Shown: piece after piece, positions 1 through 38,120 of the stretch
Layout: each line of letters opens with the position of its first letter
How positions within the stretch are numbered: position 1 is the stretch's first letter
Source: a virus
Length of the DNA stretch: 40,069 nucleotides
IMG/VR virus record: IMGVR_UViG_3300001682_000095
Span: 1 to 40,069 of that record
Direction: 5' to 3' (one strand)
Notes under the pieces: generated by a model
Database searches by the model: none
The model's input: the letters and a program-made list of their open reading frames with translations, nothing else
What the model was told of the DNA's origin: nothing
Position numbers and translations under genes: made by a program

Positions 1-88
1 GATCCGGATCAAGCACAACACCTGCAACATATACGGTAAAAAAAGGCGACAATCTTACAAAGATTGCAAAGAAATTTAATACAACCGT
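1..88. repeat. Terminal overlap, copy 1 (identical to 39982-40069); signature of a circular or terminally redundant assembly
   Basis: Base-by-base reading shows both window ends are identical over 88 bp. Confidence 0.9.
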
Positions 89-164
89 TGATAAACTCGT
101 TAAGTTGAATGGAATTAAAAATAAAAATATCATCAATGTAGGGCAGATCTTAAAGATCAGATAA
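1..164 (+). CDS. Endolysin, C-terminal end (LysM domain); continuation of the CDS that runs off the window at 40069
   Basis: Open from base 3 to TAA 162-164. Translates [53 protein letters not shown], a LysM pattern. Bases 1-88 duplicate 39982-40069 and the reading frame is continuous. Confidence 0.85.
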
Positions 165-174
165 GGAGGCACGC

Positions 175-447
175 ATGGCAGAAACAAACAAGGGCGCAGA
201 AACGCCACAGAACGCCGAAAAAGAGGTTAAGGGGTACAAAATTACCTCCGGCAATTTCAAAAGCAAAATTGAGGCAGCAGGGAAAGTCAGAGAGGCAAAC
301 AAAAAGGGCTTTACACCTGCGTTAATCATCGAAAAGGGCGAATATAAATTGCTTTATACCGAGGAAACCACAAGGGCAGCAGCCGACAGAGTTTTAAAGG
401 CAGTAAAGGCAGCGGGATTAACAGCGGAAATTTACGCAAATAAGTAG
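175..447 (+). CDS. Small SPOR-like (septal peptidoglycan-binding repeat) protein
   Basis: AGGAGG RBS 165-170, ATG 175. Two beta-alpha-beta-like halves (GYKITSGNFKSKIEAAGKVREANKKGF..ALII and YKLLYTEETTRAAADRVLKAVKAAGLTAEIY) match the SPOR pattern. Confidence 0.5.
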   Translation: MAETNKGAETPQNAEKEVKGYKITSGNFKSKIEAAGKVREANKKGFTPALIIEKGEYKLLYTEETTRAAADRVLKAVKAAGLTAEIYANK

Positions 448-463
448 ATACAAATAAAATGTT

Positions 464-496
464 GGGGTGTGGCGAAAGCTGCACCCCTTTATTTTT
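464..496 (+). terminator. Rho-independent terminator after the lysis/SPOR genes
   Basis: GGGGTGTGGC-GAAA-GCTGCACCCC stem-loop followed by TTTATTTTT. Confidence 0.8.
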
Positions 497-515
497 GTGC
501 GCGAAAATATTTTAA

Positions 516-562
516 AATATTGCGTAATATGTATTGACATATTGCGCAATATGTAATATAAT
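516..562 (+). promoter_or_regulatory. Early promoter/operator cassette, copy 1
   Basis: TTGACA 534-539, 17-nt spacer, TATAAT 557-562. Near-palindrome ATATTGCGTAATAT at 517-530 and perfect 16-bp palindrome CATATTGCGCAATATG at 538-553 inside the spacer. Confidence 0.85.
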
Positions 563-612
563 TAAATCATCGAAAGGGAAACAATAAACGAAAGGTTAAA
601 ACGGTGGTTAAT

Positions 613-945
613 ATGAGAACATACGAAGAATTAGTAAAAGAGGCAATCAAGGCAGCGCACGAAAAGGCAGAGGCAGAAAAGAAAGCAGCAGAGCAGGCGG
701 CAGCTAACCAAATGGCAAAATTTGAAGTTGGCGCAACATACGCAACAAGATCCATTTGCAACAGCGAATGTATTTTTAAAATAACAGTTGTAAAGCGCAC
801 AGAAAAAACCGTAACCATTGACAAAGGAAACGGAAAAACACAGCGTTGCAAAATTCATAATGAGGCACGCGGCGCAGAATACATTTTTCCTTATGGCGTT
901 TATAGTATGTGTCCGGTAATTGATGCAACCGAGAAAATAGCATAA
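613..945 (+). CDS. Early hypothetical protein (N-terminus paralogous to 1297-1584)
   Basis: ATG 613 preceded by GGTGG (a GTG at 604 is possible). Starts MRTYEELVKEAIKAA. Sits directly downstream of promoter copy 1. Confidence 0.65.
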   Translation: MRTYEELVKEAIKAAHEKAEAEKKAAEQAAANQMAKFEVGATYATRSICNSECIFKITVVKRTEKTVTIDKGNGKTQRCKIHNEARGAEYIFPYGVYSMCPVIDATEKIA

Positions 946-952
946 ATTTTAT

Positions 953-999
953 AATATTGCGTAATATGTATTGACATATTGCGCAATATGTAATATAAT
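953..999 (+). promoter_or_regulatory. Early promoter/operator cassette, copy 2
   Basis: The 38-nt core AATATTGCGTAATATGTATTGACATATTGCGCAATATG is identical to copy 1. TTGACA 971-976, 17-nt spacer, TATAAT 994-999. Confidence 0.85.
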
Positions 1000-1031
1000 G
1001 AATATATCAAAGGAAAGCGAGGTTAAACCAC

Positions 1032-1286
1032 ATGAAGGAATTATTAGAGAGATTAAAAGCGGCAGAGGAAAGAGCAAACAAAGCGGATCAAGCATGGGAG
1101 CAGGAACCGGAAAGCGCAGAAAAAGAAAACGAGTTTAACGAGGCGTACAAGGAAGAATACAAAGCATTTGAGGCATTAGCGGCAGGCATCGTAAAAGCAA
1201 CCGCCGGAAAGATTGACAGAAAGACCGCCGGAAACATGATCCGCATGAAAAGAAACGAATTAGAGGCATTGTTAGTAATGATGTAG
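1032..1286 (+). CDS. Early hypothetical acidic helical protein
   Basis: 84-aa ORF downstream of promoter copy 2, with GCGAGG upstream of the ATG. Confidence 0.6.
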   Translation: MKELLERLKAAEERANKADQAWEQEPESAEKENEFNEAYKEEYKAFEALAAGIVKATAGKIDRKTAGNMIRMKRNELEALLVMM

Positions 1287-1296
1287 GAGGCGCAAA

Positions 1297-1584
1297 ATGA
1301 GAGAATACAGCGAATTAGTAAAAGAGGCAATAGAGAAAGCAAAACAGCAGGCAGCAGAGAAAAGGCAGAAAGCGACCGTTTCGGAAATATACGAAGGTAA
1401 GTTAATAGAAACAGAATACATAAAGCGTAACGGCGCAATTTGGCAGCAAATAAGAGTTGACGGAAAAGTAACGAGTGAAAACAGAGTATATAAAGTTGAT
1501 ACAGAAAGACCGTATACAAGAGGTTTCGGCAAGTATTGGTATTTAGATAATGAGGCAAAAGAGGCTATGAAAGCCGCGATATAA
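1297..1584 (+). CDS. Early hypothetical protein (N-terminus paralogous to 613-945)
   Basis: TAGGAGG RBS 1284-1290, ATG 1297. MREYSELVKEAIEKAK shares a 20-nt identical stretch (1312-1331) with 628-647. Confidence 0.7.
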   Translation: MREYSELVKEAIEKAKQQAAEKRQKATVSEIYEGKLIETEYIKRNGAIWQQIRVDGKVTSENRVYKVDTERPYTRGFGKYWYLDNEAKEAMKAAI

Positions 1585-1592
1585 ATTTTAAA

Positions 1593-1639
1593 AATATTGC
1601 GTAATATGTATTGACATATTGCGCAATATGCGCTATAAT
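1593..1639 (+). promoter_or_regulatory. Early promoter/operator cassette, copy 3
   Basis: Same 38-nt core. TTGACA 1611-1616, 17-nt spacer, TATAAT 1634-1639. Confidence 0.85.
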
Positions 1640-1692
1640 AATATTGTAATCAAGTAAGGGGCAACACAAAAGAAAGGATAAGACAAAGCCCC

Positions 1693-1824
1693 ATGATAGA
1701 TTTAATAGTAGTTTTGGTAGAAATAGCGATAGTGACTAAGATAGTTTCAGACATAATAAAAGACATAAAAAAGAGGGTTGACAGCGACCAAACCGACAAC
1801 CCCGACAAAAAGGAACTAAAGTAA
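1693..1824 (+). CDS. Possible 43-aa peptide with a hydrophobic N-terminus
   Basis: ATG 1693 to TAA 1822-1824: MIDLIVVLVEIAIVTKIVSDIIKDIKKRVDSDQTDNPDKKELK. It is below the ORF-track cutoff, has a weak RBS, and is the first ORF after promoter copy 3. Confidence 0.3.
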   Translation: MIDLIVVLVEIAIVTKIVSDIIKDIKKRVDSDQTDNPDKKELK

Positions 1825-1900
1825 CCGATTAACCAAAGCCCCTTATTTGATTACATTATATATCATGGGAATTAAAAAATCAAGATAGGAGGATCGGAAT

Positions 1901-2083
1901 ATGAGAACATCGCCGCAGGAGTTTAACCAAATCGCATACCAAAATGACTATATCAAGGAAAAGTACGATCGTATAAATTTGACGGTGCCAAAGGGCAGAA
2001 AGGAGGAAATAAAGAAAAAAGCTGCATTAGCAGGAATGAGCGTAAACGAATATATTAACAGTTTAATTGATAAAGATATGTAA
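1901..2083 (+). CDS. Ribbon-helix-helix (Arc/CopG-like) DNA-binding protein
   Basis: AGGAGG RBS, ATG 1901. INLTVPKGRKEEIKKKAALAGMSVNEYINSLI fits a beta-strand plus two helices, as in RHH proteins. Confidence 0.55.
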   Translation: MRTSPQEFNQIAYQNDYIKEKYDRINLTVPKGRKEEIKKKAALAGMSVNEYINSLIDKDM

Positions 2084-2086
2084 AAT

Positions 2087-3245
2087 AAAATGGTTTGGCG
2101 CGTGTAAAGGGCGGCAGGTAGAATATACCCGCCGCCCTTCAGCATTTCAAAAGAGAGGTAAAGGCACATGAGGACATTTAAACATTTTTCATTCAATGAT
2201 AGATTGAGATTAGAGGTTTTATTAAAAGCCGGACACAAACCGGACGAAATAGCCGAAATTTTGCATTTTCATATAAGTACAATATATAGAGAGATAAAAC
2301 GCGGGCAATATGAGGCGTTAAATTCTGATTTAACCACAGAAACGAGATACAGCCCCGATATTGCGCAGGAATATATGAACGGCGTTTTAGCTGCAAAGGG
2401 CGCAGATTTAAAAATAGGCAAAGAAAGAGAATTTGCAGACCGGATAGAGGAAATAATAATAAATGAGGGGTACAGCCCTGCGGCTGCATTGGCAAAGGTA
2501 AAAACAGAGGGTATAGATTTTACGGTATGCGTAACAACCCTATATAGTTACATAGATAAAGGCGTATTTTTAAATTTGACATTGAAAGACCTGCCGGAGA
2601 AACGCAAGGGAGAAAAGCGAACCAAAAGGACAACAACACAAAAAAGAGCATCTAAAGGGGAGAGTATAGAAAACAGACCGCCGGAAATAGAAACGCGGGA
2701 GGAGTTCGGACATTGGGAAATGGATAGCGTAGTAGGTGCGCGCGGCGTTTCTAAAAAGTCTTTATTAGTATTAACAGAGAGGAAAACCCGAAAAGAAATT
2801 ATATTTTTACTAAAAGAACATACAGCGGCAGCAGTTGTAAAGGCATTAGACCGTTTAGAGCGCAAATTAGGCGCAAAATTTCGGGATATATTCAAATCTA
2901 TTACAGTAGATAACGGATCGGAGTTTTCAGATTGGGAAGGCATGGAGCGATCCAAGAGAGCCAAAAAGAAAAGAACCAAAATATATTATTGCCACCCTTA
3001 TAGTAGTTGGGAGCGCGGCAGCAATGAGAACCAAAATAAATTAGTGCGCCGCCACATTCCAAAAGGTGTTAATTTCGATGATAAAACACAAGGCAATATA
3101 GACGATATAACCGAATGGATCAATAATTACCCGCGCCGCATTTTTGAATATAGAACGGCAGAGGAATTATTTAATGAGGAATTAGAGAAAATCGCAGCCT
3201 AAAAAATGAGCATGGCGATATAGTGGTATAAGTGCGCCCATTTTT
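2087..3245 (+). mobile_element. IS30-family insertion sequence (boundaries tentative)
   Basis: Contains the IS30-type transposase gene. AAAATGG..GGCGCG at 2087-2105 weakly matches the reverse complement of 3226-3245. I could not identify direct repeats. Confidence 0.4.
2168..3202 (+). CDS. IS30-family DDE transposase
   Basis: N-terminal HTH (HISTIYREIKRGQY), GHWEMDSV, TVDNGSEF and HPYSSWERGSNENQNKLVRR motifs are typical of IS30 transposases. 344 aa. Confidence 0.85.
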   Translation: MRTFKHFSFNDRLRLEVLLKAGHKPDEIAEILHFHISTIYREIKRGQYEALNSDLTTETRYSPDIAQEYMNGVLAAKGADLKIGKEREFADRIEEIIINEGYSPAAALAKVKTEGIDFTVCVTTLYSYIDKGVFLNLTLKDLPEKRKGEKRTKRTTTQKRASKGESIENRPPEIETREEFGHWEMDSVVGARGVSKKSLLVLTERKTRKEIIFLLKEHTAAAVVKALDRLERKLGAKFRDIFKSITVDNGSEFSDWEGMERSKRAKKKRTKIYYCHPYSSWERGSNENQNKLVRRHIPKGVNFDDKTQGNIDDITEWINNYPRRIFEYRTAEELFNEELEKIAA

Positions 3246-3392
3246 AGGCATCGGCAGCAGGCGATCCGGATCCGGATCTGCATCAACCCAACACCAAAAA
3301 TAAAGAATTATAAAAAGTGCATAAAATAATATATATCTATTTGTGCATATTGCCAAAAGTGAAAAAGTGCGAAAAAATATTCGCATTGAATG

Positions 3393-3421
3393 TTGACATT
3401 TTTAATGCAAGGTTTTATAAT
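3393..3421 (+). promoter_or_regulatory. Perfect consensus sigma-70-type promoter flanked by CGCATTGAA repeats
   Basis: TTGACA 3393-3398, 17-nt spacer, TATAAT 3416-3421. 9-mer CGCATTGAA at 3382-3390 and 3452-3460, and its inverse TTCAATGCG at 3421-3429. Confidence 0.75.
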
Positions 3422-3485
3422 TCAATGCGAAAGAGTTAATTAAAACTCTAACGCATTGAATTTTTTTATTTACGAAAAAGCTAGT

Positions 3486-3530
3486 AAAAATGCGGTTAGA
3501 GCGTAAAAACTCTACCGCATTTTTTATTTT
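3486..3530 (+). terminator. Terminator-like hairpin in the leader upstream of the HTH gene
   Basis: AAAAATGCGGTTAGAG-loop-CTCTACCGCATTTTT followed by TATTTT. A related hairpin with a T7 run lies at 3421-3467. Confidence 0.65.
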
Positions 3531-3559
3531 GCCACAAACAGAGAAGGGAGGCGTTTGGA

Positions 3560-3757
3560 GTGAGAAAACAGTACAAAAAATTAACCTATGCAGACCGGCA
3601 GACAATAGAACACATGAGCGCAGAAGGGAAACCACCTAAAGCGATTGCAACAGCTACCGGCGTACACATCGCAACAATATATAGAGAATTGCAGAGGGGA
3701 GCCGATGCAGAGGGAACATATAAAGCAGAATTAGCGCAGCAGGCATTATTTTGTTAG
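3560..3757 (+). CDS. Stand-alone IS30-type helix-turn-helix protein (transposase N-terminal domain only)
   Basis: GGGAGG RBS, GTG 3560. LTYADRQTIEHMSAEGKPPKAIATATGVHIATIYRELQRG parallels residues about 8-47 of the transposase at 2168. Confidence 0.65.
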   Translation: MRKQYKKLTYADRQTIEHMSAEGKPPKAIATATGVHIATIYRELQRGADAEGTYKAELAQQALFC

Positions 3758-3778
3758 GCGGCACCACAACCGCCGCTT

Positions 3779-3850
3779 GTGCCTTTAGTCTAGTGGATAG
3801 AACACCACCCTCCGAAGGTGGCGGCGCGGGTTCAATTCCCGCAAGGCACA
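3779..3850 (+). tRNA. tRNA-Arg (anticodon CCG)
   Basis: Hand-folded cloverleaf. Acceptor GTGCCTT/AAGGCAC, anticodon stem CCACC/GGTGG with loop CTCCGAA, T arm GCGGG-TTCAATT-CCCGC, discriminator A. No encoded CCA. One mismatch in the D stem. Confidence 0.85.
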
Positions 3851-4301
3851 CTTGTAGCAAGGGCGGCAACCTTGCGGCAGAGGCAGCAGGCTAAAAGCTG
3901 TTATCTGTATACTGTGAAAAAATAGCAGCGGGCGCACCTGCTAGAAAGTGCGTAGACGGTCAACAAGTTTTCAGATGCTTTTTAATGTGAAAAGCACCCC
4001 ACACAGTAAATATAAAAGCCAAAAGGTATTATATGGGAAAAGCAAGAGAACCACCAAAGGAGGAATTGTGAAAGATATATTTTTAGAAAAAAGAATAGAA
4101 AAATAGCCGTTACGTTGGCAGCGTACCGGCTAAAGATTTAATGCAAATGCAATAACTCAATCTGTATAAATTATACCACTTATTGCGTTTGCCGTCAAGC
4201 CAAGAAACGGCGAAGGTAAGCCGTTTTTGGACTTGTTCAAACTATTAACTTTAGGATCCCTAGAGTACAGAAATACAGAAACGCAAAGGGGTGTAATTTA
4301 T

Positions 4302-5119: not shown

Positions 5120-5548
5120 GTGGAAGTAAGTATTTATATTAAGTGCCGTTTTAGAGGCAATCCAAGAGGCGCAGGGGAGGCAGCGGCGGTTATAGAGTAC
5201 ATAGACAAAGGTAGCAACACACATAACCGGCAGCAGCGGATCGAGATTGAAAAGGACACAAAGAACGCTTTATATTTAAAAATTTGCAATGCAGCGATGC
5301 GACTATTATTAAAGCCTTGCAACATCACAATTTTTATAGATTGCGATTACATGGCGAACGCCTGCCGGTTGGGATGGGTGCAAAAATGGCAGCAGGACGG
5401 TTGGAAGAAAGCAAACGGAAAGCCCCCGGCAAATGTTGAGGATTGGAAAGGCTTTTATATACTCACACAGATCCACACCGTAACATTTGAACCATACAAC
5501 GAGAAGTACAACGAGGAATTAGAGGAAATTTTAGGAGGCACAACATGA
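5120..5548 (+). CDS. RNase HI-like protein with substituted catalytic residues
   Basis: GTG start after AAGGTGG. VSIYIKCRFRGNPRGAGEAAAV and IFIDCDYMAN...WVQKWQQDGWKKANGKPPANVEDW align by eye with E. coli RNase HI (IFTDGSCLGNPGPGG; STDSQYV...[20 protein letters not shown]). The first Asp and the Glu positions appear replaced. Confidence 0.5.
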   Translation: MEVSIYIKCRFRGNPRGAGEAAAVIEYIDKGSNTHNRQQRIEIEKDTKNALYLKICNAAMRLLLKPCNITIFIDCDYMANACRLGWVQKWQQDGWKKANGKPPANVEDWKGFYILTQIHTVTFEPYNEKYNEELEEILGGTT

Positions 5549-6277
5549 AATACATGGGTTCCAAAGCGAAAATAGCAAAATTCATAGTGCCGATCATTCA
5601 ACAAAAAATTGATGAAAGCGGCAAAAGAATTTACATAGAACCATTTGCGGGCGGCTGCAATGTGATAGACAAGGTAGAGGCAGATCGGCGCATTGCATCA
5701 GACAAAAACCGGTATTTAATGGCGTTATTTCAGCACCTGCAGGACGGCGGCGAATTGCCGGAACACATAACGCGGGAAGAATACAACAAAGTTAGGGCAA
5801 ATATAAATCAATTTCCGGCGTGGTATGTTGGCGCGGTTGGTTTTCTTGCATCGTATAACGGCAGATTTTTTGACGGCGGCTATGCCGGTTTCGGAAAAGA
5901 TAAAGGCAGGGTTAGGGATTATTACAGAGAAAGCAAAAATAATATTCTTAATCAGATGCAGCAGGGGGGGGATTGCCGGTATAGAGTTTCAAACGCGGGA
6001 TTACAAAGAATTTAGCCCGCAGGGGTGCGTGATATATTGCGATCCACCGTATGAGGGTACAAAACAGTACGGCAACGCAAAAGATTTTGATTATACGGAA
6101 TTTTGGGAAACAATGCGCAAATGGAGTAAACACAACAATATAGTTTTGATTTCGGAGTTACAAGCACCGGCAGACTTTATAACAGTTTGGGAAAAGGAGG
6201 TAGATCGCAGCATGAAAGCAAAAGAGCATTTCAGAGCGACAGAAAAATTATTTATGTGGGGGGGTAGCGATAAATGA
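5545..6277 (+). pseudogene. dam: Dam-type N6-adenine DNA methyltransferase interrupted by a frameshift in a G8 tract (5964-5971)
   Basis: ORF 5545-6015 carries MGSKAKI and EPFAGGCNV (SAM-binding motif). ORF 5825-6277 carries IYCDPPY (motif IV) but has no credible start of its own. A G7 tract would read ...NQMQQGGIAGIEFQTRDYKEF... in one frame. Confidence 0.85.
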
Positions 6278-34839: not shown

Positions 34840-35192
34840 TGGCAAAAGCAACAATCAAGGTAGTAGAAAAGAACGCCGGAAAAAAGATCGGTTATGAGTT
34901 GGACGGTAACACACTTTGGATCGGCGATGCTATCGCAATGAAGTTACACAAATTACAGACAGACGATGTAGTAAGAAAGGATATTTGCGCGGACAAAGAC
35001 GGCAATTTAGTTTTTGGATTGGGCGAAAATTATGTTGCGCAGGTAGAAATTCCACCAAAGGAATACGAGTACATCGAGGGCGAGCCGGACGGCGAAGGAA
35101 AGGCAACATACGAAAAAGTACAGAAAGATTTTGATGCATCGAAATGTACATTAACATTGTGGAGTATTGAGGAGGTATATATCAATGAGTAA
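34839..35192 (+). CDS. Hypothetical tail-fibre-region protein
   Basis: TAATG coupling; 117 aa. Confidence 0.5.
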   Translation: MAKATIKVVEKNAGKKIGYELDGNTLWIGDAIAMKLHKLQTDDVVRKDICADKDGNLVFGLGENYVAQVEIPPKEYEYIEGEPDGEGKATYEKVQKDFDASKCTLTLWSIEEVYINE

Positions 35193-36237
35193 TTATGAAG
35201 ATTTAAGAGGCGCAGCAGCCAACACAGAAATTATTTTAGATGATTTGGGCGTACCTTCAGTAATGGTAAAACAGCCCCTTGTATATTTGGACGAATTAGG
35301 GATCGGAGAGGCGCACACGCCACACCCTGCATTTATTATCAATGATAAAGTAGTACCATACATTTACTTGCCTTCGTTTATAGGCACTATCAAAAACAAC
35401 AGAGCATACAGCCTGCCAAATCAAGATCCGGCAAACTATGTAAATTACGATCGCGCGGTGGAAGTATGCGCAAATAAGGGCGCAGGGTGGCATCTTATGA
35501 CCGGCGCAGAATGGGGATTGGTTCACAACATGATTACAGCAGCGGGAGAAGAACCAAGAGGAAACACAAACAACGGAAGATCACACGTTAAAACATACGA
35601 ACATGGAGTGTTAAGCCCTACAAATCAAAGCGGCGCATATAGAACACTAACCGGAACCGGCGGCAAAACATGGGAGGCTTGCGGCATCAATGATTTAGTT
35701 GGAAATGTCAACAAATGGATCGCGGGCGTAAGATTAGTTGACGGAGAGATCCAAGTTATCCCTAACAACAACGCGGCTATTCACAAAACAGATTTAAAGG
35801 CAAATAGTGCAGCATGGCGCGCAATCCTGCAGGACGGTTCATTTGTGGCACCGGGAACAGCAGGTACACTAAAATTTGATTATTCCGCAGCACCGGCGGC
35901 AAATACAGCGAATTTCTATTTATCAACAACAATAGAAAACAAGCAGACAGAGGAGGCGCACTATGGCTATAAAGATTTTGGAGCATTAACGGCAAAAGCG
36001 GGCGTAACGGTGCCGGATATTTTAAAGGCTTTAGCACTATTCCCTAACACCGACAAAACCGGCAGGGGCGGCTTTTGGATGCGCAACATGGGTGAACGGT
36101 TGCTTATTCGTGGCGGTCATTATGGTCATGGTGCGAGCGCGGGCGAGGCTTGCGGCCGTTTGAACAACGAGCGTTCTCGCTCGTCTGCGCATTTGGGGCT
36201 TTTCCCCGCTTACGTGGATCCTGCGCTTTATGCGTAA
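35185..36237 (+). CDS. DGR target protein: receptor-binding candidate with a C-terminal C-type lectin / FGE-sulfatase-like fold carrying the VR
   Basis: GAGGAGG RBS, ATG 35185. AVEVCANKGAGWHLMTGAEWG is an FGE/CLec-type motif. The C-terminus RLLIRGGHYGHGASAGEACGRLNNERSRSSAHLGLFPA is the VR. Confidence 0.85.
   Translation: MSNYEDLRGAAANTEIILDDLGVPSVMVKQPLVYLDELGIGEAHTPHPAFIINDKVVPYIYLPSFIGTIKNNRAYSLPNQDPANYVNYDRAVEVCANKGAGWHLMTGAEWGLVHNMITAAGEEPRGNTNNGRSHVKTYEHGVLSPTNQSGAYRTLTGTGGKTWEACGINDLVGNVNKWIAGVRLVDGEIQVIPNNNAAIHKTDLKANSAAWRAILQDGSFVAPGTAGTLKFDYSAAPAANTANFYLSTTIENKQTEEAHYGYKDFGALTAKAGVTVPDILKALALFPNTDKTGRGGFWMRNMGERLLIRGGHYGHGASAGEACGRLNNERSRSSAHLGLFPAYVDPALYA
36095..36211 (+). repeat. 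DGR variable repeat (VR)
   Basis: 117 bp collinear with the TR at a constant offset of 632 bp. 12 mismatches, all opposite TR adenines. Confidence 0.9.
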
Positions 36238-36298: not shown

Positions 36299-36703
36299 AT
36301 GCAAAGAAATTTCAGAGCATCAGCGACACCACCGGAACCAAAAGCCGATCTTTTAATTTTCAAGAAAACAAGAGAAATGATCGCATACGGAAATGAATGT
36401 TTATATAACAAACAATTTCCGAGGAATAGGCGCGTAGGGAATACGATCGGCGCACAAATGGAAAAGACTATGTATGAAATTTTAGAGGGATTGACAGAGG
36501 CAGCAACAAAAGAACATAAGAAAACAGCATTAACGCAGGTTGATGCTAAAATATCATACCTCCGGCAATTACTGATAATTTCGGTAGATCCCAAAATGAA
36601 TACAAAAGGCGGTTTAATTCCACTTGATGATCAAAGAAGGTGGTGCGCGCAGCTAGAGGAAATAGGAAAAATTTTAGGTAGTTGGCTAAATAAGCTAAAA
36701 TAG
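36299..36703 (+). CDS. avd: DGR accessory variability determinant (four-helix-bundle Avd)
   Basis: 134 aa, basic. DLLIFKKTREMIAYGNECLYNKQFPRNRRVGNTIGAQMEKTMYEILEGL matches the Avd pattern. Lies between VR and TR. Confidence 0.8.
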   Translation: MQRNFRASATPPEPKADLLIFKKTREMIAYGNECLYNKQFPRNRRVGNTIGAQMEKTMYEILEGLTEAATKEHKKTALTQVDAKISYLRQLLIISVDPKMNTKGGLIPLDDQRRWCAQLEEIGKILGSWLNKLK

Positions 36704-36726: not shown

Positions 36727-36843
36727 AACGGTTGCTTATTCGTGGCGGTAATTATGGTAATGGTGCGAACGCGGGCGAGGCTAACGGCAATTTGAACAAC
36801 GAGCGTTCTAACTCGAATGCGAATTTGGGGCTTTTCCCCGCTT
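36727..36843 (+). repeat. DGR template repeat (TR), non-coding
   Basis: Adenine-rich copy of the VR with 10 AAY codons in the VR frame. Lies between avd and the RT gene. Confidence 0.9.
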
Positions 36844-37007
36844 TTCTCAATTAGTCAGCATACGCCGCAACACGCGGGCGGCGTACCGTACAGAGAGAAG
36901 AAAAGGGGCATATTTCCCTTCTTGCGAAAGCGAGAAAAACAAAAATTTCCATGAATACGGCTAGTAGCGAAAGTGAAGGGCGTAACGCATGGAGAAATTG
37001 GGCTAAA

Positions 37008-38120
37008 ATGAAGAAATTTAATATAACCTATGAACAGATCACAAGCTACAACAATATCTATGCAGCCTATTTAGATGCGCGGAAAAGCAAAAGCGAAAGA
37101 AACGAAATTATGCGTTTTTCCTTAGAATTAGATAGCAGTTTAAATAGCTTGTATGAGGAATTGCAGGAGGGGCGTTACAAAGTAAGTGGGTACAGAATTT
37201 TATATATTTATGTACCAAAGAAACGGCTAATTATGGCGTTACAGTTTCGCGATCGCGTGCTGCAATGGGCTATTTATAGGTTGCTTAATCCGATGTATGA
37301 GAAAACTTATATAAAGGATAGTTACGGTTGTAGAAAAGAAAAAGGCAGAGAAAAGGCAGCTAAACGCTTGCAATATTGGTTACGGCAGACGGATAGAAAG
37401 CCAAAACAATATTATTACTTGAAACTTGATATTTCAAAATTCTTTTATAGAGTGGATCACGAGGTATTATTAAACATACTAAAACGCCGGATAAAGGACG
37501 AAAAGATCATAAGGTTGTTTGATAATATCATAAATTCAGAGAAACGAGCCTTCGGGCTACCGTTGGGAGTAGATCCCTGCGAGATAGATCCGCGCGAAAT
37601 GCTATTCGATAAGGGTATGCCAATAGGCAATTTAACATCGCAGATGTTTGCAAATATCTACATGAATGAATTAGATCAGTACCTAAAGCATGAGTTACGG
37701 TTAAAATATGTAATTCGCTACATGGACGATTGTATAATATTGCATGAGAGTAAAGAAGAATTGCGGCAAATATTGGCAAAAGTAGAAGTTTTCCTTCTTG
37801 AAAAGCTAAAATTAAATCTGAATAAGAAAACCGTTATAAGACCAACAACCTGCAATGTTGATTTTGTGGGGTATGTGATAAATAAAGACGAAATAAGATT
37901 AAGATCCGCGACAGTAAAAAGAATGAGATCCCGCATAAAGTACATAGTGAAAGCATACGAGCGCGGCGAAATGACTTTAAAGGAAGTGAACGCAACCATG
38001 CAAAGCTATTTCGGTTTGATGAAACATTGCACAAATGAGGGATTAAAAGAAAACATTATTAACGGTTTTGTGCTGCATTGCACCGATGCAGCGCGAGCCA
38101 AAGCACAAGAAAGCCGATAG
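37008..38120 (+). CDS. DGR reverse transcriptase
   Basis: YYLKLDISKFFYRVDH, GMPIGNLTSQMFANIYMNELD (the IGxxxSQ DGR signature) and IRYMDDCII (YxDD). Start is ATG 37008, or 36951 as in the ORF track. Confidence 0.9.
   Translation: MKKFNITYEQITSYNNIYAAYLDARKSKSERNEIMRFSLELDSSLNSLYEELQEGRYKVSGYRILYIYVPKKRLIMALQFRDRVLQWAIYRLLNPMYEKTYIKDSYGCRKEKGREKAAKRLQYWLRQTDRKPKQYYYLKLDISKFFYRVDHEVLLNILKRRIKDEKIIRLFDNIINSEKRAFGLPLGVDPCEIDPREMLFDKGMPIGNLTSQMFANIYMNELDQYLKHELRLKYVIRYMDDCIILHESKEELRQILAKVEVFLLEKLKLNLNKKTVIRPTTCNVDFVGYVINKDEIRLRSATVKRMRSRIKYIVKAYERGEMTLKEVNATMQSYFGLMKHCTNEGLKENIINGFVLHCTDAARAKAQESR

Follow-up and report, generated by a model that had tools for sequence, protein, structure and literature searches.

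The window analysed here, a stretch of 40,069 nt, is a circular 39,981-bp 'IScream' phage that is mobilised by an IS30 transposase, and one part of it carries the same promoter three times. Which protein acts on these promoters, and what do they control? The repeat is a 38-nt core, AATATTGCGTAATATGTATTGACATATTGCGCAATATG, which an earlier note on this DNA had described as present in three identical copies. All three are exact (516-553, 953-990 and 1593-1630), no further copy is found in the window with up to three mismatches, and 100 shuffles gave 0 matches (expected number, 0). Each copy supplies TTGACA and TATAAT 17 nt apart (score 12/12), both elements perfect as the note had stated, together with two palindromes, O1 and O2:

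516-562, plus strand: P1 unit, with O1 at 517-530, the -35 element at 534-539, O2 at 539-552 and the -10 element at 557-562; predicted start at ~569.
953-999, plus strand: P2 unit, with O1 at 954-967, the -35 element at 971-976, O2 at 976-989 and the -10 element at 994-999; predicted start at ~1006.
1593-1639, plus strand: P3 unit, with O1 at 1594-1607, the -35 element at 1611-1616, O2 at 1616-1629 and the -10 element at 1634-1639; predicted start at ~1645.

The palindromes, too, are as first described, operator-like and with centres 22 bp apart. O2 is perfect whether taken as 14 bp (539-552 in P1) or as 16 bp (538-553); its first base is the final base of the -35 element and it covers 13 of the 17 spacer positions. 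The upstream palindrome, O1 (517-530 in P1), pairs at six of seven positions. Taking both as 14 bp, O1 spans -52 to -39 and O2 -30 to -17 relative to the predicted start. Beyond P1-P3, the 14-bp motif occurs nowhere else in the 40 kb at one mismatch or fewer. Perfect consensus promoters number only four in the whole genome, P1-P3 and one at 3393-3421 that lacks these operators. By its match to the consensus, each repeat should be a strong housekeeping-sigma promoter, the yardstick being that of E. coli and B. subtilis, whereas the hosts here are Lachnospiraceae.

The promoters head a series of small genes, and all genes of the window lie on one strand:

464-497, plus strand: intrinsic terminator before P1, a 10-bp GC-rich stem with a T-run (-23.1 kcal/mol, z = -4.3).
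613-945, plus strand: cassette 1, orf110 (110 aa in relatives).
1032-1286 and 1297-1584, plus strand: cassette 2, orf84 and orf95, headed by P2.
1645-1855, plus strand: cassette 3a, putative type I toxin mRNA encoding a hydrophobic 43-aa peptide, orf43 (1693-1824).
1760-1883, minus strand: putative antisense RNA gene, with a -35 element at 1883-1878, a -10 element at 1860-1855 and a terminator hairpin at 1802-1775 followed by a U-run; predicted start at ~1848.
1901-2083, plus strand: cassette 3b, a 60-aa Arc-like ribbon-helix-helix (RHH) protein and proposed autorepressor, with the RBS AGGAGG at 1887-1892.

The terminator at 464-497 is predicted to end the late/lysis transcript and to shield P1. 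P2 and P3 begin 8-9 nt past the preceding stop codon (8 nt past that of orf110 for P2), and a terminator scan and folding revealed nothing convincing between the cassettes, the sole plus-strand match being a weak 7-pair stem inside orf110 (753-770). Parallel transcription units, as had been proposed, are thus not what is found; P1-P3 are tandem and nested in series, with no terminator separating them. Because the promoters run head to tail without terminators and the RHH gene comes last, all three would transcribe their own repressor gene.

Searches of Pfam, PHROGs, PADLOC and NCBIfam returned nothing credible for orf110, orf84, orf95 or orf43, and without family matches the suggestion that they are anti-defence or host-takeover factors finds no support. 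Their description as small acidic products fits orf84 and orf43 (both pI 5.1) but not orf110 and orf95, which are basic (pI 8.7 and 9.1). The AF2 model of orf110 (pLDDT 88) consists of a long N-terminal helix and a small β-barrel, for which Foldseek gave no PDB match better than E = 0.3; orf95 resembles orf110 over the first 24 amino acids. No relative of the array was recovered by blastn of 1-4200 against GenBank phages, a tRNA was the sole Rfam match over 1-4300, and no description of an RHH-promoter module was found in the literature.

The first gene of the P3 cassette, orf43, looks like a type I toxin gene. The 5' end of its mRNA (1645-1662) pairs with 1838-1855, and this helix closes the minimum-free-energy folds in all six homologues; RNAalifold yields 12 pairs, among which three show compensatory changes and one is touched by a gap in the alignment. 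This conserved helix at the 5' terminus begins at 1645, in keeping with a P3 start 5-6 nt past the -10 element. On the other strand, the promoter-like site of the putative antisense RNA scores 10/12, its elements are kept in relatives, and the RNA folds with -26.7 kcal/mol (z = -4.7).

Cassette content is variable. A near-identical prophage (97-99.7% identity) lacks exactly one P2-to-P3 unit of 640 bp, with the breakpoint inside the repeat, and near-identical phages contain one to three cassettes. The identical promoter copies may double as homology for the gain and loss of cassettes, and a gene arriving behind a promoter copy would join the regulon of the RHH protein.

The RHH protein has the β-strand R24-I-N26-L-T28. 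It matches phrog_13890 (6e-21) and phrog_582, 'Arc-like repressor' (6e-6), and its profile aligns with Arc 1b28 over the strand and both helices (E = 0.0025), placing RINLTVP on the Arc strand QFNLRWP. Scores against the Pfam NikA-like, CopG, RHH_5 and Arc families all fall under the gathering thresholds. The AF2 monomer is poor (pLDDT 66) and draws the expected β-strand as a helix; since RHH proteins are obligate dimers, we judged the monomer model uninformative. No second RHH protein was found in the window and no XRE- or CI-type domain in the scanned proteins; a single candidate repressor is present. The same scan contained no CI/Cro-type HTH, in agreement with the earlier statement that the genome has no recognisable CI/Cro pair.

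The promoters and the RHH gene are inherited together. The 19-mer TTGACATATTGCGCAATAT, used alone, retrieved 37 IMG/VR loci, each with one to three copies of the same layout, and the only protein of the window common to these loci is RHH, present in 33 of the 37. It lies downstream on the promoter strand in all of the 33 except L022 and L028. Three of the RHH-less loci are cut at a contig end or split over two loci, and the fourth (L017) has a divergent promoter. Conversely, the RHH alignment alone retrieved 79 loci, which were scanned for a TTGACA-like/17/TATAAT-like promoter bearing a 14-bp palindrome (one mismatch or fewer) beginning at the final base of the -35 element. This layout is found upstream of RHH in 76 of the 79, counts that overstate the independent support because many of the compared loci are closely related (~31 distinct RHH sequences and ~8 operator classes). 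As a control, the detector scored 85 sense and 0 antisense matches upstream, against five sense and 0 antisense downstream. The operator classes vary in sequence while their position is constant; across diverged phages the layout keeps its register relative to -35 and -10, and the flanks and the three spacer bases outside O2 vary freely. Pairs of palindromes 21-23 bp apart are kept across loci, which is compatible with a cooperative dimer of dimers, though not diagnostic of it.

Operator and protein also covary. The operator variant TTGACATATSCCGRSATAT precedes an RHH strand of the form R-I-E-I-K/T-V in 21 of 22 usable loci, and TTGACATTATRCGYATAAT precedes INLTMKAG, INLMVPAG or INLLIPAG. In a table of 50 distinct RHH-operator combinations, Asn at residue 26 goes with the core T(G/A)CG(C/T)A (37/39), Glu with (G/C)CCG(A/G)(C/G) (8/8) and Ser with TGAGCA (2/2). 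At residue 11, Ile, Phe, Val or Leu goes with the outer bases ATAT (43/43) and Asn, Ser or Thr with ATTAT (7/7). Phages with two RHH paralogues have two matching operator classes; at six variant-operator loci, a pattern search found no RHH within 1.8 kb. Indirectly, this covariation suggests that side chains of the RHH strand read the operator bases. As residue 11 covaries with the outer bases, the N-terminal segment ahead of the strand probably contacts DNA as well, as it does in Arc. The two positions, 11 and 26, make up a predicted recognition code, under which an N26E variant would prefer ATATGCCGACATAT and an I11N variant ATTATGCGCATAAT.

From these comparisons of sequence, it is likely that the RHH protein (1901-2083) controls P1-P3 through O1 and O2, forming a negative-feedback array of the Arc/Pant type. 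RHH dimers would bind the two 14-bp palindromes about two helical turns apart, one overlapping the final -35 base and most of the spacer and the other covering the stretch directly upstream of the -35 element, and occupancy of both would exclude or stall RNA polymerase. The RHH gene starts 262 nt downstream of P3, on the same strand, and the O2 of P3, at -30 to -17, overlaps the core promoter. Since the repressor gene is downstream of the promoters it should repress, regulation would be negative and autogenous: P1, P2 and P3 would all feed RHH, the last gene of the array, which would then shut them off. Entry into an RHH-free cell would thus produce a burst of cassette expression that settles to a clamped low level, also in the prophage. 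'Immediate-early' firing on entry is plausible, and clamped expression in the prophage equally so. Of the single-repressor switch suggested in the earlier note, one element stands, a small phage-encoded repressor being the best candidate binder, but the circuit is not bistable, as there is neither an antagonist nor a divergent promoter; no minus-strand promoter overlapping P1-P3 was found.

What the array is for within the phage depends on its surroundings, which comprise the following features:

2107-2139, plus strand: strong hairpin in the gap from RHH to the transposase gene (centroid -24.1 kcal/mol, z = -3.1).
2168-3202, plus strand: IS30-family DDE transposase, which acts as the phage integrase (NF033563, 239.9 bits against a cutoff of 80; phrog_4646 at full length).
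3380-3431, plus strand: abutted phage ends, with the right IR at 3380-3404, a 2-bp spacer at 3405-3406 and the left IR at 3407-3431; outside the RHH regulon.

The transposase faces outward, downstream of and co-directional with P1-P3, and is the final gene before the host flank in integrated copies (three different flanks), while the gene next to the host flank at the other end (six different flanks) is that of a 65-aa HTH_38 protein (3560-3757). A related prophage is present in the isolate Clostridiaceae bacterium Marseille-Q4145 (L141/L150). In the integrated prophage, the array occupies the right end, which faces outward, and a strong terminator separates it from the lysis genes that precede it. 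The phage ends were defined from integrated copies (three right ends and six left ends) and from circle junctions, whose 2-bp spacers are AT, GA or GT. The 25-bp ends share an internal 12-bp repeat, and the one contig showing both ends has a target duplication of 15-16 bp, AATCAGCGTTCGCGA(G). The fourth consensus promoter spans the junction, with its -35 element (3393-3398) in the right end and its -10 element (3416-3421) in the left end at 17-nt spacing. Split in this way, it exists only in the circle.

This arrangement raises the possibility that the array mainly meters transcription into the transposase, with the RHH level setting the rate of circle formation and the circle rebuilding a junction promoter that drives the left-end genes. 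Such a function is compatible with the autorepression circuit, and we consider it possible, if on balance unlikely. P1-P3, RHH and the transposase are co-directional, and the only element between the latter two is the hairpin at 2107-2139, which has no U-tract and would therefore be a partial terminator or stabiliser at best. The gap between the two genes is 75-98 nt in six relatives in which they adjoin, and 835-842 nt in two further loci. IS30 itself makes a strong junction promoter over a 2-bp spacer (PMC9333248), as the circle-only promoter here would. However, among 80 related loci selected by their transposase, RHH is upstream in just eight and the operator promoter in six, so that coupling is not a general design; an RHH module built into the IS30 machinery was rejected on the same count. 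Moreover, a weak promoter-like site (2095-2124) could drive the transposase independently, and the hairpin may yet terminate transcription.

A wider scheme would make these parts a lysogeny circuit free of CI/Cro. RHH-limited read-through from P1-P3 would set the transposase dose, the circle would rebuild the junction promoter to drive the left-end genes (HTH_38, rep and possibly beyond), integration would split and silence it, and a type I toxin/antisense pair under RHH control would stabilise the prophage. We put this forward as a speculative and rather unlikely extension.

It is less probable again that P1-P3 are immediate-early lytic promoters whose repressor is a master lysis-lysogeny switch replacing CI/Cro. 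No CI/Cro-like protein was found in the genome, P1-P3 are three of its four perfect consensus promoters, and with no repressor present at entry they should fire first. Yet the operators are confined to P1-P3 and absent before replication and structural genes, the array lies behind a terminator after the lysis genes and in the prophage aims outward, away from the lytic genes, and both an antagonist repressor and a divergent promoter are absent. Furthermore, 72 of the 80 related IS30-transposase phage loci do without the RHH module, and the module recurs in the lysin-to-integrase gap of tyrosine-integrase phages that have a CI-like S24 repressor of their own, as well as in the same position in Roseburia phage Shimadzu. 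An array specific to the lytic programme is not supported.

Binding of the palindromes by something other than RHH, whether HTH_38 (3560-3757), the HTH at the transposase N terminus or a regulator of the host, is very unlikely. HTH_38 is a small DNA-binding protein encoded nearby, the palindromes would be compatible with HTH dimers too, and a few genomic sites carry the exact 19-mer without RHH in the vicinity. In the operator loci, however, homologues of HTH_38 and the transposase are present in 6 of 37 as opposed to 33 of 37 for RHH, and both proteins were rejected on this co-occurrence; tyrosine-integrase phages keep the operators while having neither. The earlier note had named both the RHH and the HTH protein as possible binders, and comparison favours the former and not the latter. 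More plausible targets of HTH_38 than O1/O2 are the CGCATTGAAT repeats within the phage ends. A host factor would not explain why operator variants track RHH residues. The genomic matches in Bacteroidota (L137, L139, L146 and L147) have neither O1 nor a -10 element nor an RHH gene and appear to be chance matches; a few RHH-less Clostridia matches keep O2 and a plausible -10 element but not O1, and may be orphan operators. Each Clostridia genome match with full O1 and O2 either comes with a same-strand RHH gene or is truncated by the end of the locus, and with the chance-like Bacteroidota matches this led us to reject a host-factor regulon.

That the repeats are mere products of duplication or recombination at cassette boundaries, with palindromes of no regulatory role, would agree with their 100% identity over 38 nt, with breakpoints in the repeat where cassette number differs among near-identical phages, and with the 24 N-terminal amino acids common to orf110 and orf95, but is highly improbable given a layout that holds its register with -35/-10 across diverged phages while the flanks are free, operator classes that change sequence and never position, and an antisense-strand control with 0 matches. 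Recombination at the repeats is real, and is an added property of the autorepressed array rather than an alternative to it.

The mechanism proposed, autorepression of the Arc/Pant type, is itself classical, and the main value of the system therefore lies in its context and tractability rather than in surprise. It names a concrete repressor-operator pair, from a family of small phage proteins that is widespread in the gut Clostridia of humans and animals but uncharacterised. An identical promoter scaffold bears at least four specificity classes in nature, and these could give compact orthogonal regulators for the genetically difficult Lachnospiraceae. The array also illustrates how accessory genes may be swapped within one regulon by recombination at identical promoters, and it provides the first candidate regulatory elements for IScream phages, which were described in 2025 without an account of gene control.

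The closest parallel is Arc and its promoter Pant in the immI region of Salmonella phage P22, where, as proposed here, a strong promoter transcribes, within its operon, the gene of the small RHH protein that represses it. The operators of Arc and CopG overlap the promoter of their own operon, and CopG blocks access of RNA polymerase there (PMC2724298); as with Arc/Pant, the operator here overlaps the core promoter (PMC2724298), and a burst of expression followed by shut-off is predicted. There are differences, however. Sequence similarity to Arc is marginal (E = 0.0025), two separate 14-bp palindromes 22 bp apart replace the one 21-bp operator of Arc, and the repressor gene ends the operon instead of opening it. 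Whereas immI has the divergent, overlapping promoters Pant and Pmnt and a second repressor, Mnt, this locus has neither such a promoter pair nor a further repressor. One to three tandem copies of the promoter-operator head different cassettes, and the hosts are gut Clostridia rather than Salmonella.

The omega repressor of plasmid pSM19035 is an RHH protein that autoregulates its own gene and, by way of short repeated sites, acts on several other promoters of its replicon. As with omega and with CopG/Pcr of pMV158, a single RHH protein is proposed to act on its own gene, and each 14-bp palindrome can be read as two inverted 7-bp units. In contrast to both, the array is a phage accessory locus and not a control of plasmid copy number or partition; upstream of rep, parA and parB in this genome there are no operators.

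Autonomous promoter-plus-gene units are also known from phage 'morons' and from the lysogenic-conversion region of Firmicutes prophages, which lies between the lysin gene and attR. Like morons, the units described here follow the lysis module at the prophage end and vary in content between near-identical phages. They differ in sharing one operator-bearing promoter and, as proposed, one dedicated repressor, and, having no terminators of their own, make up one co-regulated array.

In IScream phages (Wirbel, Hickey et al., Nature 2025), one end carries a full-length, outward IS30 transposase and the other end a truncated IS30 fragment, and their description makes no mention of promoters, repressors, inverted repeats or target duplications (PMC12823448). 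The present phage likewise has a full-length outward transposase, an HTH-only IS30 fragment at the opposite end and many host sites in Clostridia, but it belongs to the minority of IScream-type phages that carry the RHH array. The target duplication of IS30 is 2 bp (Olasz et al. 2022, PMC9333248), in contrast to the 15-16 bp found here, whereas the circle junction resembles that of IS30, with a 2-bp spacer and a predicted junction promoter (PMC9333248).

The 38-nt core is present in three exact copies (516-553, 953-990 and 1593-1630), and a search tolerating ≤3 mismatches found no fourth copy in the window; 100 shuffles yielded none. Each copy contains TTGACA, a 17-nt spacer and TATAAT, and the 40 kb hold only four such perfect consensus promoters: these three (P1-P3) and a site at 3393-3421. 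Two palindromic, operator-like sites accompany each promoter, with centers 22 bp apart. O2 (ATATTGCGCAATAT) is a perfect palindrome whose first base is also the final one of the -35 element; O1 (ATATTGCGTAATAT) is palindromic at six of seven pairs. The earlier note had described the identical cores, the perfect promoters and the spaced palindromes, and all three hold. Taking the predicted start as 7 nt past the -10 element, O2 would span -30 to -17 and O1 -52 to -39. A whole-genome scan found the palindrome motif nowhere else at ≤1 mismatch. The probable ligand is RHH, a 60-aa putative Arc-like ribbon-helix-helix protein, dimers of which would sit on O2 and O1 and bar RNA polymerase from all three promoters.

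The final 88 nt of the window repeat the first 88, so the genome is circular, at 39,981 bp. Its real genes all lie on the plus strand and encode a lysin, the LysM-bearing C-terminal end of which spans the contig ends, as well as rolling-circle Rep, ParA and ParB. The phage conforms to the 'IScream' type described by Wirbel, Hickey et al. (PMC12823448), a paper with no mention of promoters, repressors, inverted repeats or target sites. Other features are as follows.

Further features of the window
1901-2083, plus strand: RHH
2168-3202, plus strand: IS30-family transposase
3560-3757, plus strand: HTH_38, a 65-aa helix-turn-helix (HTH) protein
35167-36237, plus strand: diversity-generating retroelement, target gene with C-terminal variable region
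36299-36703, plus strand: diversity-generating retroelement, bAvd
around 36732-36850: diversity-generating retroelement, template repeat
36951-38120, plus strand: diversity-generating retroelement, reverse transcriptase

A D12-class adenine methyltransferase (region 5545-6277) occupies two ORFs that overlap, 5545-6015 and 5825-6277, where relatives have a single gene of 240-245 aa, which suggests a frameshift or assembly error. Just upstream of the rolling-circle rep, a near-consensus promoter on the minus strand (4170-4198; TTGACG-17-TATAAT with a TG extension) points leftward and may produce a countertranscript like those controlling RCR plasmid copy number.

A strong terminator (464-497) lies upstream of P1, and P2 and P3 start 8-9 nt past the preceding stop codon. 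A terminator scan found no credible terminator inside the array, so transcripts begun upstream must run through the later promoters and on into the RHH gene. Because that gene ends the array, RHH would act by negative autoregulation, with a burst upon entry into a naive cell followed by a clamp. Where a single-repressor switch over three parallel units had been proposed, the one repressor is retained as the candidate on co-occurrence and covariation, but the units are tandem and probable autoregulation takes the place of the switch. Relatives carry one, two or three promoter copies with differing cargo, and a prophage sharing 97-99.7% identity with the window is without exactly one P2-to-P3 unit (640 bp), the junction falling within the repeat. 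From its left end, the prophage runs through HTH_38, rep, the structural and then the lysis genes, the terminator, P1-P3, RHH and the transposase to its right end; the array therefore points outward from the element. This layout also fits an excision gate, in which RHH would meter read-through into the transposase; such a role is compatible with the arrangement in this lineage, though unproven and not general.

The RHH module occupies the gap between lysin and integrase in tyrosine-integrase phages that have a CI-like S24 repressor. It does likewise in the cultured Roseburia phage Shimadzu, where RHH is orf30 (40% identical) and the spacer holds another palindrome, TATCTTGYRCAAGATA; in Flavonifractor phage Castelnaud, an Arc-like gene lies at the genome end. 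Among 80 phage loci selected by their IS30 transposase, RHH was upstream in only eight, and membership of the mobilisation machinery was rejected on this count. Together with the lysin-to-integrase siting, it makes the module a portable accessory array, separate from mobilisation. A CI/Cro-like master switch is unlikely, since the operators are absent from lytic genes, the array is directed outward, and the module is found alongside CI in other phages and is missing from most IS30-type phages. Hosts are Lachnospiraceae and relatives, including the isolate Clostridiaceae bacterium Marseille-Q4145. No close relatives were found among GenBank phages, nor any description of the RHH promoter module in the literature.

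The assignment of RHH to the operators was approached from both directions. A search with the 19-mer TTGACATATTGCGCAATAT retrieved 37 viral loci, each with one to three copies of the O1/-35/O2/-10 layout, against which every window protein was compared by tblastn. RHH was the sole window protein common to these loci (33/37), and was downstream on the promoter strand in all of the 33 except L022 and L028. Conversely, an alignment restricted to RHH homologues fetched 79 loci; in 76 of them a promoter lies upstream, always with a 17-nt spacer, and carries a 14-bp palindrome (≤1 mismatch) that starts on the last -35 base. Both RHH and the HTH protein had been put forward as binders; these data favor RHH as the candidate, the transposase and HTH_38 occurring in 6 of the 37 operator-found loci. 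Both this co-occurrence and the covariation described below contradict a role for HTH_38, the transposase or a host factor as the binder. As a strand control, the detector gave 85 sense matches and none on the reverse complement upstream of RHH, and five sense (further cassettes) and no antisense matches downstream. Across 63 non-redundant promoter copies only the -35 and -10 elements, O1 and O2 are conserved; the flanks vary, as do the three bases of the spacer that O2 leaves uncovered. This conservation in register with promoter elements, and the strand control, contradict a reading of the repeats as pure duplication scars.

The position of the palindrome is constant while its sequence varies with RHH.

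RHH β-strand regions and accompanying operators
RINL(T/V): ATATTGCGCAATAT
RINLTMKAG, RINLMVPAG: ATTATGCGCATAAT
RINLLIPAG: ATTATACGTATAAT
RIEIKV: ATATGCCGACATAT
RIEITV: ATATCCCGGGATAT
RISLML: ATATTGAGCAATAT

Searches with two variant operators returned the matching RHH variants, in 21 of 22 usable loci for the E26 class. The operator core tracks residue 26 and the outer bases residue 11, with very few exceptions among 50 distinct combinations. Related sequences enter these counts, which represent about 31 distinct proteins and some eight operator classes. Phages with two RHH paralogues have both operator classes, one before each sub-array. In some tyrosine-integrase phages (L021, L010, L025 and relatives), the paralogues are ~1.5 kb apart, each with its own class (ATATTGCGCAATAT and ATTATACGTATAAT). 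Such pairs would constitute two orthogonal self-repressed sub-arrays in one genome.

The RHH family profile aligns with P22 Arc (1b28) over RINLTVP and both helices (E = 0.0025), and more weakly with Mnt and NikA. From the Arc alignment, R24, N26 and T28 are predicted to face the groove. PHROGs matches were phrog_13890 (6e-21), a family of unknown function, and 'Arc-like repressor' (6e-6); all Pfam RHH families fell below threshold for the 60-aa protein, and its AlphaFold2 monomer model was poor.

The cassette products orf110 (after P1) and orf84 and orf95 (after P2) have no family or fold match, nor did a structure search with orf110 give one. P3 is followed first by a gene for a hydrophobic peptide of 43 aa. 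The 5' end of its mRNA (1645-1662) pairs with 1838-1855 in the folds of six of six homologues, with compensatory changes in 3 of 12 consensus pairs. On the minus strand, a conserved promoter (1883-1855) and a terminator with a U-run (1802-1775) would define a putative antisense RNA, convergent with the peptide gene and overlapping it at the 3' end. Type I toxin-antitoxin loci of Firmicutes are arranged in this way, with a hydrophobic peptide mRNA and a 3'-overlapping antisense RNA, and the P3 cassette (1645-1883) looks like a putative locus of this type; Rfam returned tRNA only, without a match here. This layout argues for prophage-resident functions over host takeover, the role earlier suggested for the small cassette genes, which is not borne out.

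Look-up of RHH and HTH_38 as exact protein matches retrieved integrated copies. The right end (...TTCGCATTGAATGTTGACATTTTTA) adjoins three different host flanks and the left end (GCAAGGTTTTATAAT...) six; one contig (L039/L048) shows both, with a target duplication of 15-16 bp, as against 2 bp for IS30 (PMC9333248). Many right flanks read (L038, L141, L148, L176-L189) have a host TTGACA...TATAAT-type promoter a few tens of nt past the junction, which in L148 precedes an apparent tRNA gene, and the prophage is co-oriented with flanking host genes.

The promoter at 3393-3421 is divided between the phage ends: its TTGACA lies 6 nt short of the right terminus at 3404, and its TATAAT belongs to the left end, which runs from 3407, so that the promoter exists only in the circular form. 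This split design recurs in a second IScream clade (L175-L189; transposase 58% identical) and in L165. Circle junctions have a variable 2-bp spacer (AT, GA or GT), and IS30 circles have a 2-bp spacer too (PMC9333248). An internal 12-bp repeat, ATTCAATGCGAA, is common to the 25-bp ends. Three copies of the motif CGCATTGAAT lie around the junction, one per inverted repeat (3382-3391 and 3420-3429) and one 21 nt inside the left end (3452-3461); they are likely to be bound by the transposase HTH or by HTH_38, an HTH-only protein resembling the transposase N terminus. The leader between this promoter and the HTH_38 gene (3432-3531) contains a strong intrinsic terminator (3487-3531), the 5' arm of which could alternatively pair with CTCTAACGC (3445-3453), a nearly identical stretch further upstream. 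This arrangement may be an attenuator, and it would also protect the prophage against read-through from the host.

The proposed mechanism of P1-P3 belongs to the Arc/CopG type of autorepressed promoter, the operators of Arc at Pant and CopG at Pcr likewise overlapping the promoter of their own operon (PMC2724298). What is new is the tandem promoter-cassette array of variable copy number, the natural set of orthogonal RHH-operator classes on one scaffold, and the setting in IScream phages, the regulation of which was previously undescribed.
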